From Escherichia coli (lineage in GTDB: Bacteria > Pseudomonadota > Gammaproteobacteria > Enterobacterales > Enterobacteriaceae): 64,000 nucleotides of DNA. Where the stretch lies: the NCBI RefSeq assembly GCF_003018255.1, contig NZ_CP027440.1, one strand, 5' to 3'. How positions within the stretch are numbered: the first letter of the stretch is position 1; every line of letters begins with the position of its first letter. A program made the translations under genes and the position numbers. The notes beneath the pieces were generated by a model that saw only the letters and a program-made list of their open reading frames with translations, was not told where the DNA came from and made no database searches. This document shows, piece after piece, positions 22,991-27,353 of this stretch.

Positions 22991-23020
22991 GAAAAATGGC
23001 GCCCATCGGCGCCATTTTTT
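22991..23020. terminator. Bidirectional intrinsic terminator between crr and pdxK
   Basis: Stem ATGGCGCC / GGCGCCAT with loop CATC, flanked by A-run and T-run; the pdxK stop codon overlaps the T-run. Confidence 0.75.
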
Positions 23021-23974: not shown

Positions 23975-24343
23975 ATGAAGAAAATCATTTGTCTGGTCAT
24001 TACGCTGCTAATGACACTCCCCGTTTACGCGAAGTTAACTGCCCATGAAGAAGCCCGTATCAACGCCATGCTGGAGGGATTAGCACAGAAAAAGGATTTG
24101 ATATTTGTGCGTAACGGCGATGAACATACCTGCGATGAAGCGGTTTCCCACCTGCGTCTGAAGCTCGGCAATACCCGTAACCGCATTGACACTGCCGAGC
24201 AGTTTATTGATAAGGTAGCCTCGTCGTCATCGATTACCGGGAAGCCGTATATCGTGAAGATGCCCGGTAAAAGCGATGAGAACGCACAACCTTTTTTACA
24301 TGCGCTGATTGCGCAGACGGATAAAACGGTGCCTGCGCAATAA
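23975..24343 (+). CDS. yfeK: Uncharacterised secreted protein YfeK (122 aa)
   Basis: ORF-track; signal peptide [19 protein letters not shown]. Confidence 0.8.
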
Positions 24344-24345
24344 TC

Positions 24346-25257
24346 TTAAATCCCCGCCCCCTGGCTAAAATGCTCTTCCCCAAACACCCCGGTAGAAAGG
24401 TAGCGATCGCCGCGATCGCAGATGATCGCCACAACCACCGCGCCGGGGTTAGCTTTTGCCACGCGCAGTGCTCCGGCAACCGCGCCGCCGGAGCTGACGC
24501 CACAGAATATTCCTTCCCGCACTGCCAGCTCGCGCATGGTGTTTTCCGCATCGCGCTGATGAATATCCAGCACTTCATCCACCAGCGAAGCGTTGAAAAT
24601 CCCTGGCAGATATTCCGCAGGCCAGCGGCGAATGCCGGGAATGCTACTGCCCTCTTCCGGCTGCAGGCCAACAATGGTCACCGGTTTGGATTGTTCGCGC
24701 ATAAAGCGTGACACACCGGTAATGGTGCCGGTCGTCCCCATACTGGAGACAAAATGCGTAATGCGCCCGCCAGTTTGCTGCCAGATTTCCGGCCCGGTGG
24801 TGGTGTAATGGGCGAAGGGATTATCAGGATTATTGAACTGATCGAGCAGCTTTCCTTCACCACGATTGGCCATCTCCAGCGCCAGATCGCGCGCGCCTTC
24901 CATGCCCTGCTCTTTGGTGACAAGAATCAGTTCCGCACCGTATGTCAGCATCGCTGCACGGCGCTCCTGGCTCATGTTGTCGGGCATCAGCAATTTCATG
25001 CGATAGCCTTTAAGCGCGGCAATCATTGCCAGCGCAATGCCGGTGTTACCACTGGTGGCTTCGATCAGCACGTCACCCGGTTTAATTTCCCCGCGCTTTT
25101 CCGCCTCAACGATCATCGAAAGTGCCGCACGATCTTTTACCGAACCTGCCGGGTTATTGCCTTCCAGTTTCAACCAGACTTCACTGCCGTTATTCGGCCC
25201 CATTCGCTGCAACTTCACCAGAGGCGTATTGCCAATTGTTTGTTCTAATGTACTCAC
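24346..25257 (-). CDS. cysM: O-acetylserine sulfhydrylase B / cysteine synthase B (303 aa)
   Basis: ORF-track; MSTLEQTIGNTPLVKLQRMGPNNGSEVWLKLEGNNPAGSVKDRAAL... Confidence 0.95.
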   Translation of the reverse strand: MSTLEQTIGNTPLVKLQRMGPNNGSEVWLKLEGNNPAGSVKDRAALSMIVEAEKRGEIKPGDVLIEATSGNTGIALAMIAALKGYRMKLLMPDNMSQERRAAMLTYGAELILVTKEQGMEGARDLALEMANRGEGKLLDQFNNPDNPFAHYTTTGPEIWQQTGGRITHFVSSMGTTGTITGVSRFMREQSKPVTIVGLQPEEGSSIPGIRRWPAEYLPGIFNASLVDEVLDIHQRDAENTMRELAVREGIFCGVSSGGAVAGALRVAKANPGAVVVAIICDRGDRYLSTGVFGEEHFSQGAGI

Positions 25258-25280
25258 GATCTATGTCCATACGTGGTGTT

Positions 25281-25316
25281 GCCTGATGCGACGCTTGCGC
25301 GTCTTATCAGGCCTAC
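25281..25316. repeat. REP (repetitive extragenic palindromic) element
   Basis: GCCTGATGCGACGCTTGCGCGTCTTATCAGGCCTAC, the typical E. coli REP palindrome, in the cysA-cysM spacer. Confidence 0.65.
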
Positions 25317-25336
25317 AGGTTACAAACCTTGCCATT

Positions 25337-25372
25337 AAAAAGCCCGGATCGCGGGAAGCGCCTCCGGGCGTT
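25337..25372 (-). terminator. Hairpin plus U-run between cysA and cysM (possible intra-operon attenuator)
   Basis: On the minus strand, stem GCCCGGA / TCCGGGC with 14-nt loop followed by TTTTT, 20 nt after the cysA stop. Confidence 0.45.
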
Positions 25373-25390
25373 TAACATTCACTCAACCTA

Positions 25391-26488
25391 TCAGGCGCTT
25401 TGTGCGAGAGCAAGTTCCTCATCGCGGGTTTCAATACGCTCGTCGCCGTTATACAGCCGCGCATGTTGCAGACCAACGAATAAACGCTCGCCACGCTGCG
25501 GGGCATCGTCGCCATGCATCACAACCGTCAGCGGTTCGTTGTACCACCCCAGCGGCTGCACGACTAATTGGGTGTAGTGGCCTTTCGGGCTGGCTTCCAG
25601 TACCTGTACCGGCAGCGGCGAATCGAGGCTGGTACGGCGGCTGATATCCACTTCCCACGGGCGCAGGAAGAGATCCACCGGCCCCTGATAAGCAGGTGTG
25701 TAGCCCAGCGGCCAGCGATGTGCGCCAACATGGAACTGCCCGCCGCGAATGGTTCCCTGCAGGCGGTTCACTTCGCCCATAAATTCGAGCACAAAGCGGG
25801 TCGCTGGTTCGCGCCATACCTGATCCGGCGCATCAGCCTGCTCGATATTGCCCTGGCTCATCACCACTACACGATCGGCTACTTCGGTCGCTTCTTCCTG
25901 GTCATGGGTCACGAATACGCTGGTAAATTTCAGTTCTTCATGCAGTTGACGCAACCAGCGACGCAGCTCTTTACGCACCTGCGCATCCAGCGCGCCAAAC
26001 GGTTCATCAAGCAGCAGAATTTGCGGTTCCACAGCCAGCGCACGCGCCAGCGCCACGCGCTGTTTCTGCCCGCCGGAAAGCTGTGCCGGATAACGATCCG
26101 CCAGATGCGCAAGCTGGACCATCTCCAGCAATTTTGTCACTTTCGCTTTGATGGCTGCGGCATTCGGGCGCTCGCGACGCGGCAGCACCGTCAGGCCGAA
26201 AGCGATATTGTCGAATACCGTCATATGGCGGAACAGCGCGTAATGCTGAAACACGAAACCGACTTTACGATCGCGCGCATGCAGGCGGCTGACGTCGGTG
26301 CCGTGGAAGCGAATATGCCCGCTGGTTTGATGCTCCAGCCCGGCGATAATCCGCAGCAGCGTGGTTTTCCCGGAACCGGACGGCCCCAGCAACGCGACCA
26401 TCTGACCAGAAGGAATATCCAGCGAGATATCGTTCAGCACCTGGGTGCGACCAAAAGACTTCTTAATATTGGCAATCTCAATGCTCAT
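25391..26488 (-). CDS. cysA: Sulfate/thiosulfate ABC transporter ATPase CysA (365 aa)
   Basis: ORF-track; Walker [13 protein letters not shown] signature [15 protein letters not shown]. Confidence 0.96.
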
Positions 26489-27353
26489 GATGTTCCTCCT
26501 GCTGCGCGCGTTTTTCCTGATTCTCCAGGCGCCACTGCAACATACTCTTTAAAAACAGGGTGATAATCGCCATCAGCGTCAACAACGCAGCGGCGGTAAA
26601 GGAGCCGACGGTGTTGTAGTCCTGCTCCAGCAATTCAATCTGTAGCGGCAGCGAAAGTGTTTCGCCGCGAATCGAGCCGGAAACCACCGACACCGCGCCA
26701 AACTCGCCAATTGCGCGGGCGTTGGTCAGCACCACGCCGTAAAGCAGCGCCCAGCGGATGTTCGGCAGCGTGACGCGACGGAACATCTGCCAGCCGGACG
26801 CGCCAAGTAAAATCGCCGCTTCGTCTTCCTGGCTGCCCTGACTTAACATTACCGGTACCAGTTCGCGCACCACAAACGGACACGTCACGAAGATGGTGAC
26901 CAGCACCATACCCGGCCAGGAGAACATAATTTGCAGATTATGTTCATCCAGCCAGCCGCCCAGCGGGCCGTTAGAGCCGTAGAACAGCAGATACACCAGA
27001 CCAGCAACCACCGGCGACACGGCAAACGGAATGTCCAGCAGCGTCAGCAATAGCTGGCGTCCGGGGAAGTTAAAGCGCGTCACCAGCCAGGCCAGCAGAA
27101 TGCCGAACACCAGGTTTACCGGTACGGCAATCAGCGCGATCATCACCGTCAGCCAGATGGCGTGCAGCATGTCCGGATCGGCCAGATTTTGTAACACCGG
27201 CATCAGTCCTTTGCTGAACGCCTGTACGAAGATATAAATCATCGGCACCAGCAGGATGAACGCCGATACCAGCATCCCGATGCCAATCAGAAACCATTTG
27301 CCCCAGTTAATCGGGCGCGCGTCATAACGCTTCAATTGTGTCACTTCCGCCAT
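26478..27353 (-). CDS. cysW: Sulfate/thiosulfate ABC transporter permease CysW (291 aa)
   Basis: ORF-track; overlaps the cysA start by 11 nt. Confidence 0.95.

Follow-up and report, generated by a model that had tools for sequence, protein, structure and literature searches.

What does the stretch between the last two genes of the cysPUWAM cluster of E. coli do, and could it hold the amount of the last gene's product apart from that of the genes before it? In K-12 the genes cysP, cysU, cysW, cysA and cysM follow one another in this order on one strand (RefSeq record). The list of open reading frames has the first four abutting or overlapping, with cysM the sole gene to be set apart. In the window, by which we mean the whole 64-kb stretch of E. 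coli DNA that was analysed, the open reading frames and the sequence itself put the gap between cysA and cysM at exactly 133 nt (25258-25390, minus strand). Read 5' to 3' along the transcript, the cysA TGA is followed by 21 nt that include a second stop codon (TAG), a hairpin, UUUUU, a small 5-bp hairpin, GTAG with a 32-nt palindrome, 23 nt and then the GTG of cysM (Table 1). A first-pass annotation of this DNA had placed a hairpin, a U5 tract and a REP in this spacer, and had taken the arrangement to suggest an attenuating architecture that lowers cysM expression relative to the transporter genes. Every part of that anatomy is present in the sequence at the position given for it relative to the open reading frames, and the structures are more than chance would produce: the whole spacer folds with -48.9 kcal/mol (z = -3.4), and none of 200 shuffles was as good as either the hairpin or the REP.

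The spacer is fixed within the species. A 351-nt query spanning the site is 100% identical to strain 2014C-3338 and has matches of at least 95% identity in 5,420 of 5,426 complete genomes, where the annotation on the two sides is always cysA and cysM, while at least 80% of a 151-nt query is covered in 5,421 of 5,426 genomes. Three positions of the spacer differ between K-12 and the window, all of them outside the hairpin. At the cysA end, the TGATAGGTT junction is conserved in the Enterobacteriaceae, as seen in the comparison of spacers described below.

Table 1. Features of the cysA-cysM region, in order of transcription, with window coordinates.
Feature	Position	Strand	Basis
cysA coding sequence (ATP-binding subunit of the sulfate/thiosulfate ABC transporter)	25391-26488	minus	open reading frame list; RefSeq annotation (matching E. 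coli records, K-12)
cysA stop codon TGA, then in-frame TAG	25393-25391; 25390-25388	minus	sequence
Terminator-like hairpin, GCCCGGA-GG-CGC-UUCCC-GCG-A-UCCGGGC	25342-25369	minus	sequence, fold, terminator score
U5 tract abutting the hairpin on its 3' side (tail UUUUUAAUGG); predicted site of RNA release if the hairpin is an intrinsic terminator	25337-25341	minus	sequence
65-nt insert absent from Citrobacter and Lelliottia, after the T-run and before the ribosome-binding region of cysM	25267-25331	minus	alignment
REP: GTAG (25316-25313) with 32-nt imperfect palindrome GCCUGAUAAGACGCGCAAGCGUCGCAUCAGGC (25312-25281)	25281-25316	minus	consensus match, fold, copy number
cysM translation start region: weak Shine-Dalgarno UGGA and GTG (25257-25255)	25255-25279	minus	anti-Shine-Dalgarno duplex energy, start-codon comparison
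cysM coding sequence (cysteine synthase B, or O-acetylserine sulfhydrylase B; last gene of the cluster)	24346-25257	minus	open reading frame list; RefSeq annotation

The hairpin begins 21 nt past the cysA TGA, and so lies downstream of the stop codon on the transcribed strand. It has the build of an intrinsic terminator, a GC-rich stem-loop directly followed by a U-rich tract: a 7-bp GC-rich outer stem (GCCCGGA/UCCGGGC) encloses a 2x1 internal loop, a 3-bp inner stem and a 5-nt loop, with a folding energy of about -18 to -19.1 kcal/mol (z = -3.3 for the hairpin alone). The U5 tract, found at about 2539660-2539664 on the minus strand of K-12, runs on into AAUGG, which leaves the U-run below the ideal length of 7-8. 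With a U-run this short (5 U) and a hairpin interior this large, the efficiency of the site could be low, a point to be held against the reading at which we arrive below. A simple terminator scan of positions 24300-26600 did not flag the hairpin, because its interior spans 14 nt, including the 3-bp sub-stem, and the scan's rule admits only loops of 3-8 nt.

We therefore scored hairpin and T-run with a d'Aubenton-Carafa-type index, d, taking dinucleotide shuffles and cysA-internal windows as controls. The hairpin reaches d = 30 and ranks 10th of the 14 sites with d of at least 25 on the two strands of the window (128 kb); in the same scan, the bidirectional crr/pdxK terminator has d = 44-50. 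Chance gave a d of at least 30 in 1% of dinucleotide-shuffled spacers and in 0% of cysA-internal windows. This score falls among those of the gene-end terminators of the window, in the lower half of their range, which fits a leaky site, and the hairpin and U5 together look like a real terminator of middling strength. In E. coli the 58-nt segment that carries the hairpin is single-copy and nearly invariant: 4,660 of 5,427 records match the window exactly, and none has less than 95% identity. The supplements of Adams 2021, TERMITe 2025 and SMRT-Cappable-seq hold no rows for cysA/cysM or for K-12 positions 25396xx, although such lists may miss a weakly expressed operon, and a literature search found no paper on the cysA-cysM spacer.

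A search of genome contigs confirmed 599 CysM relatives. The sample used for comparison consisted of 80 CysM loci, one genome per species, drawn from genera other than Salmonella and Klebsiella. In 59 of these loci cysA lies upstream on the same strand, and the 54 spacers among them that measure up to 250 nt were used for the counts. This analysis revealed a hairpin and T-run with d of at least 10 in 93% of the 54 spacers, which come from Enterobacterales, as against 3% of dinucleotide shuffles and 1% of cysA-internal windows, and with d of at least 30 in 61%, as against 1% and 0%. At least ten unrelated stem sequences are found among these hairpins, in loci that are themselves phylogenetically related. 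They include GCCCGG/CCGGGC in Escherichia, Citrobacter, Enterobacter and allies, GCGGCC/GGCCGC in Cedecea, Siccibacter and Shimwellia, GGGCGGG/CCCGCCC in Pantoea, GGCAACCC/GGGTTGCC in Serratia and GCTCATCTC/GAGATGAGC in Photorhabdus, with other unrelated stems in Yersinia, Tatumella, Erwinia, Acerihabitans and Proteus. That structure and T-run are held at one position despite this turnover of sequence is a signature of selection for a terminator-like function, and the arrangement of hairpin and T-run appears from this comparison to be ancestral in Enterobacterales. The attenuating architecture proposed in the first-pass annotation therefore holds in one of its parts: the hairpin and U-run behave like a selected terminator, whereas the REP falls outside the conserved device.

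Closer to E. coli, the stop codon, 5' flank, hairpin and T-run of Escherichia align as orthologues of those in Citrobacter and Lelliottia, with the seventh pair of the stem swapped (A-U for U-A) between Escherichia and the other two genera. Every one of the 22 Enterobacteriaceae hairpins that adjoin a T-run retains the six outer pairs; at pair 4, 15 have C-G and seven G-C, at pair 7, four have A-U and 13 U-A, and at pair 1, two have G-U. These stem changes are compensatory. A T-run of 5-7 follows all but one of the 22 orthologous hairpins; L008 has ATTTTG instead. Directly 5' of the hairpin there is also a short block, ATGTTTATC (ATGTTAAAC in E. coli), that is conserved in Enterobacteriaceae.

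The position of the hairpin relative to cysM bears on the strength of the putative terminator. In E. coli 84 nt separate the two, whereas just 18-21 nt lie between the end of the hairpin and the cysM GTG in the Enterobacteriaceae genera closest to Escherichia. A promoter cannot fit into a gap of this size, so that cysM transcripts in those genera must read through the hairpin. No other argument from the comparison speaks as strongly for a partial rather than a complete terminator. The linkage itself is variable: in two loci (L013 and L021) the same spacer follows a gene for a GH78 rhamnosidase, not cysA, and cysM there cannot depend simply on read-through from cysA, while Dickeya, Pectobacterium, Brenneria and many non-enteric gammaproteobacteria do not have the two genes linked.

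The palindrome that follows U5 in E. coli has the properties by which REPs are recognised, being a stable palindrome of about 35 nt with GTAG at one end and many dispersed extragenic copies. It folds into stems of 7 bp and 5 bp at -21.9 kcal/mol (z = -6.2) and has 0 mismatches to a REP consensus, with 0.00 chance matches expected. The region also gives a partial match to the Rfam family naRNA4, which is derived from REP325 (E = 6e-5). Recognition and cleavage by TnpA-REP (RAYT) proteins are properties of REPs as a class, of which the GTAG and hairpin determinants alone are visible here. The 75-nt REP half of the spacer occurs at a minimum of 40 places per E. coli genome (5,349 records), and three further REPs lie within the window, at 46739-46975. 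The copy between cysA and cysM has already been catalogued as REP175, class 'Tandem', at K-12 2539643..2539608 (Supplementary file 2, 10.64898/2026.03.23.713779), an interval that corresponds to 25282-25317 of the window.

Together with the small 5-bp hairpin, REP175 is carried by a 65-nt insert that has ATGG on either side. This insert is found in Escherichia alone, where both E. coli and E. albertii carry one REP in it; Pseudocitrobacter faecalis (L003) has the same flanks around two REPs in a different arrangement. Within E. coli, the REP half of the spacer drops to 90-95% identity in 1,136 records, a range never reached by the hairpin half, and this comparison is to be read as indicative because a SNP private to the window pulls down the top identity band of the REP half. 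Lying past the U-run, the REP is present on read-through RNA alone and cannot be the primary device. We regard the E. coli-type REP as a later insertion that is secondary or neutral, and probably a passenger.

In some relatives of E. coli the hairpin is itself a REP. In Enterobacter, Pseudescherichia, Pluralibacter and others, the spacer consists of an inverted pair of GCC[CG]GG-type palindromes flanked by GTAG/CTAC, the second of which abuts the T-run. The pair of Enterobacter asburiae is a dispersed repeat (175 places, 49 plasmid-collection records, mainly Klebsiella, Enterobacter and Salmonella). In Citrobacter, Lelliottia and Escherichia the hairpin has on its left the flank of the first palindrome and on its right that of the second, and bears no tag; C. 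youngae and C. werkmanii have the hairpin centre in opposite orientations. Larger inserts are present in the spacers of Yersinia, Serratia, Rahnella, Photorhabdus and Pantoea. From these relationships we infer that the terminator hairpin of the Enterobacteriaceae is a member or a descendant of a GCC[CG]GG-type REP family, one that has ceased to be active in E. coli. The change could have run in either direction, as the collapse of a REP pair or as the invasion of an old hairpin.

The start of cysM adds what may be a second layer of control, one that was absent from the first-pass annotation. The predicted duplex of its Shine-Dalgarno region with the anti-Shine-Dalgarno sequence has an energy of -3.0 kcal/mol, the weakest in the operon, with values of -5.1 to -10.3 kcal/mol for cysP, cysU, cysW and cysA. 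In addition, cysM is the one gene of the operon with a non-ATG start, the other four all beginning with ATG, and its GTG is kept in 56 of the 59 loci. A model of the read-through leader, in which we have low confidence, would have the U-run and AAUG pair with codons 3-5 of cysM and a small hairpin form over the start codon. As for promoters, a consensus scan, which misses weak or activator-dependent ones, found no sigma-70-like site on either strand between 24300 and 26600, and neither the scan nor inspection by eye found a promoter in the REP-bearing insert.

Published expression data touch on the same point. In an APEC lsrR mutant, cysU, cysW and cysA are up 3.4, 6.9 and 9.9 fold, and cysM is unlisted and stated by the authors to be unchanged (PMC13393413). 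The table is one of significant genes alone, and cysP is missing from it too (PMC13393413). In K-12 over-expressing mstA, cysW and cysA are up 5.6 and 5.4 fold and cysM is again unlisted, in a table that is likewise restricted to significant genes. The absence of cysM from both tables is a weak hint that it is uncoupled from cysA. An array study of RNase III and RNase E handled cysPUWAM as one operon and mentioned no discontinuity.

The reading that we favour, and hold to be moderately probable, is that a leaky intrinsic terminator and poor translation initiation would combine to keep the ratio of CysM to transporter low, with the REP as a secondary barrier or a passenger. We infer termination in this scheme, as well as its efficiency and any effect of the REP. 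Transcription would start at the cysP promoter, and most polymerases would release their RNA at the U-run, 21 + 28 + 5 nt past the cysA stop codon, to give a cysPUWA mRNA with its 3' end shielded by the hairpin. A minority would read through to produce RNA that bears cysM, and this RNA would be poorly translated owing to the weak Shine-Dalgarno match and the GTG start. The outcome would be little cysteine synthase B relative to the transporter. REP175 would be at most a second, weaker barrier, acting through partial Rho-dependent termination and/or a block to 3' exonucleases, as reported for REP325. A more far-reaching version, which strikes us as quite unlikely, would make the hairpin a conserved attenuator, read through conditionally, that uncouples cysteine synthase B (the thiosulfate or anaerobic branch) from the sulfate transporter; a REP would then have been domesticated into an intrinsic terminator at one set place in the operon in Enterobacteriaceae, and kept there while the REP family was replaced in Escherichia. 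Were this true, read-through would answer to the sulfur source, to growth rate, or to a factor that binds the conserved block 5' of the hairpin.

The same structures could also act on the finished message. With near-full read-through, the hairpin, joined by the REP in Escherichia, would block 3'-to-5' exonucleases after endonuclease cuts in or before cysM, and the cysPUWA part would outlive the cysM part, a differential decay of the malE-malF kind. At -19.1 and -21.9 kcal/mol both structures are stable, and the classical work on the malEFG REPs reportedly agrees. A REP between tandem genes has moreover been found to stabilise the upstream yjdM mRNA, although the same study does not tie terminal REPs generally to longer half-lives (10.64898/2026.03.23.713779). 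Such an effect on stability in place of termination nevertheless seems unlikely: the conserved unit is a hairpin directly followed by a T-run, which an exonuclease barrier does not need, and the REP is conserved nowhere beyond Escherichia and one Pseudocitrobacter genome. That the spacer has no function at all, the hairpin being a decayed REP and the REP a selfish insertion, both in a spacer that tolerates insertions, would accord with its tendency to gather repeats (one REP in Escherichia, two in P. faecalis, paired REPs in Enterobacter and its allies, larger inserts elsewhere) and with the dispersed nature of the Enterobacter element. We consider this very unlikely, however, given a hairpin and T-run in 93% of spacers across families with unrelated hairpins, compensatory stem changes, and a hairpin half that varies much less within E. 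coli than does the REP half.

A different division of the locus would result if the hairpin and U5 were an efficient terminator of cysPUWA and cysM were expressed mainly from a promoter of its own, in the end of cysA or in the spacer. No promoter-like site was seen on either strand at 24300-26600, and the 18-21-nt gap of the related genera would force such a promoter upstream of the hairpin, so that its transcripts would meet the same terminator. O-acetylserine sulfhydrylase B depends on CysB and on sulfur limitation, which fits the cysP promoter. Two independent units are nonetheless what one might expect from the two tables that omit cysM with cysA induced 5-10 fold, from the lineages in which cysM is unlinked from cysA, and from the two spacers preceded by a rhamnosidase gene; on balance we judge this arrangement improbable, to about the same degree as the effect on stability. 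Finally, the end of cysA, the hairpin and the U-run might be released or processed as a 3'-UTR-derived, Hfq-binding regulatory RNA. A terminator hairpin with a U-run is indeed the standard Hfq-binding 3' module, and a conserved block does lie 5' of the hairpin. Against this, Rfam gave the hairpin region no family beyond a chance-level match to snoU105B, a search of the literature on cysA and cysM together with Hfq and sRNA brought up nothing of relevance, and the hairpin sequence turns over fully between genera, with no conserved seed identified, all of which makes a regulatory RNA barely credible to us.

None of this alters the general understanding. The REP was already catalogued, and internal terminators, effects of REPs on tandem genes and weak start signals are established devices for setting gene ratios. 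What is added here is that conservation, and probably function, reside in the hairpin and not in the REP, the hairpin being kept across Enterobacterales and apparently REP-related in Enterobacteriaceae. The comparison separates an old, selected terminator-like hairpin, possibly a domesticated REP, from a young, catalogued REP, probably a passenger. Should the hairpin prove to be a leaky terminator, the 'cysPUWAM operon' of the textbooks would become a transporter unit with a throttled last gene. This would explain why cysM can fail to track cysA in expression studies, and would be relevant to the engineering of cysteine and thiosulfate assimilation in E. coli.

The rpsU/dnaG terminator in rpsU-dnaG-rpoD and the rplL/rpoB attenuator are internal intrinsic terminators that set gene ratios. 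Like both of these, the cysA-cysM spacer has a hairpin and U-run between co-directional genes, the downstream one being needed in the smaller amount, and, like dnaG, cysM also has poor translation signals. The two systems have experimental 3' ends and measured read-through, whereas the terminator between cysA and cysM is a predicted one. Newbury, Higgins and co-workers reportedly showed in 1987 that the intercistronic REPs of malE-malF act as a barrier and are associated with higher expression of the upstream gene. There too a REP occupies an intercistronic spacer of an ABC-transporter operon; the malE-malF REPs, however, are themselves the barrier and have no U-run terminator before them, whereas the cysA-cysM REP is lineage-specific and sits downstream of a terminator-like hairpin. 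According to what Liang, Rudd and Deutscher are said to have found in 2015, a REP within about 15 nt of a stop codon causes ribosome stalling and trans-translation. The cysA-cysM spacer shares with those REPs a stable structure shortly after a stop codon but differs in distance, with 21 nt from the cysA stop codon to the hairpin and 74 nt to the GTAG of the REP, and on this ground we rejected stalling and trans-translation at the REP.

Among REPs between tandem genes, 146 REP-containing pairs in E. coli show raised ratios of upstream to downstream expression, and REP325, in yjdM-yjdN, lowers read-through into the downstream gene and stabilises the upstream mRNA (10.64898/2026.03.23.713779). 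What the first-pass annotation proposed for the REP is in line with this published general picture. The two loci are alike in having REP sequence between two tandem genes of one operon. In contrast to REP325, cysA-cysM has a single REP, which is preceded by a separate, non-repeated hairpin and U-run, and it is these that form the conserved element. Most REPs lack a poly-U tract, but some, the 'REP RITs' REPt42, REPt127 and REPt285, double as Rho-independent terminators (10.64898/2026.03.23.713779). The spacers of Enterobacter, Pseudescherichia, Pluralibacter and their allies, in which a GTAG-flanked REP abuts the T-run, resemble these REP RITs, and the E. coli hairpin aligns with the hairpin of those genera. 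Unlike the REP RITs, however, the E. coli hairpin carries no GTAG/CTAC tag, is single-copy and is no longer a member of a repeat family.

Two in-frame stop codons (TGA TAG) were found to end cysA, both in the window (25388-25393) and at the orthologous positions of the CysM-encoding loci L003-L022. Both the junction TGATAG(G/C/T)TT that they form and a short block lying just 5' of the hairpin (ATGTTTATC, which reads ATGTTAAAC in E. coli) are kept in all of Enterobacteriaceae. In two genomes the gene on the upstream side of the conserved spacer is not cysA: in Kluyvera genomosp. 1 (L013 67-2500) and in Enterobacteriaceae bacterium RIT691 (L021 ~2300-2500), a GH78 alpha-L-rhamnosidase directly precedes the spacer. 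The rhamnosidase stop codon occupies the usual cysA stop position, and is followed by the conserved spacer (TGATAG..., hairpin, T-run and the GTG of cysM).

The centre of the hairpin was found to be inverted between two species of Citrobacter, reading TGGCGCTACGCTTA in C. werkmanii (L006 2456-2481) versus TAAGCGCTGCGCCC in C. youngae (L007 2456-2481), while the outer stem and T-run are the same in both. Flipping of a palindromic repeat would be expected to give such an inversion.

The cysA-cysM spacers of Serratia plymuthica (L053) and of two Yersinia loci (L036 and L042) are ~227-233 nt long and carry an extra element of ~130-150 nt with the shared core …CACCGAGGGGCGCTCCG.CGGC…GACCC.TTCGGCAC…, which is probably a small mobile repeat. 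In Serratia plymuthica, the terminator-like hairpin GGCAACCCCAGGGTTGCC flanks this element on both sides. Three further genera have much larger inserts (see table), and the cysA-cysM spacer seems to be an insertion hot spot.

Features of the window and large inserts in the cysA-cysM spacers of other genera (d, d'Aubenton-Carafa-type terminator score)
Feature	Position	Strand	Details
Perfect bidirectional terminator	22997-23014	T-runs on both strands	TGGCGCC-CATC-GGCGCCA, d = 44-50
yfeK stop	ends 24343	+	
cysM stop	ends 24346	-	
Three REP copies	46739-46975	minus	exact 100-bp period
Much larger spacer insert	Rahnella L033		1,378 nt
Much larger spacer insert	Photorhabdus L056		527 nt
Much larger spacer insert	Pantoea L048		345 nt

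In RNA that reads past the U-run into the start of cysM, cysM codons 3-5 are predicted by a fold of 25243-25340 (minus strand) to pair with the U-run/AAUG (25340-25333), and the CGUG over the cysM start codon with an upstream CACG. If formed, this CACG/CGUG pairing could lower cysM translation further.

At the downstream end of cysM, the window lacks the 961 bp of K-12 that bear yfeS (L001 7706-8666; site 24337-24348), and the stop codons of yfeK and cysM are separated by only 2 nt, with no intergenic terminator between them. Most E. coli genomes, 4,038 of 5,426, share this direct yfeK|cysM junction. In K-12, REP174 lies between cysM and yfeS (supplement, preprint 10.64898/2026.03.23.713779).

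Elsewhere in the window, two of the three REP copies at the period listed in the table are identical, and the group looks like a tandem REP/BIME array. The bidirectional terminator sits where crr and pdxK converge and is a useful internal standard of terminator strength.

The same supplement (preprint 10.64898/2026.03.23.713779) lists a plus-strand ‘NusG minus/plus’ region at K-12 2539385-2539613, a label that apparently denotes a Rho-termination data set. This region corresponds to ~25059-25287 of the window (+ strand), where it is antisense to the 5' end of cysM. Its end falls in REP175, which suggests that this REP may also halt antisense transcription leaving cysM.
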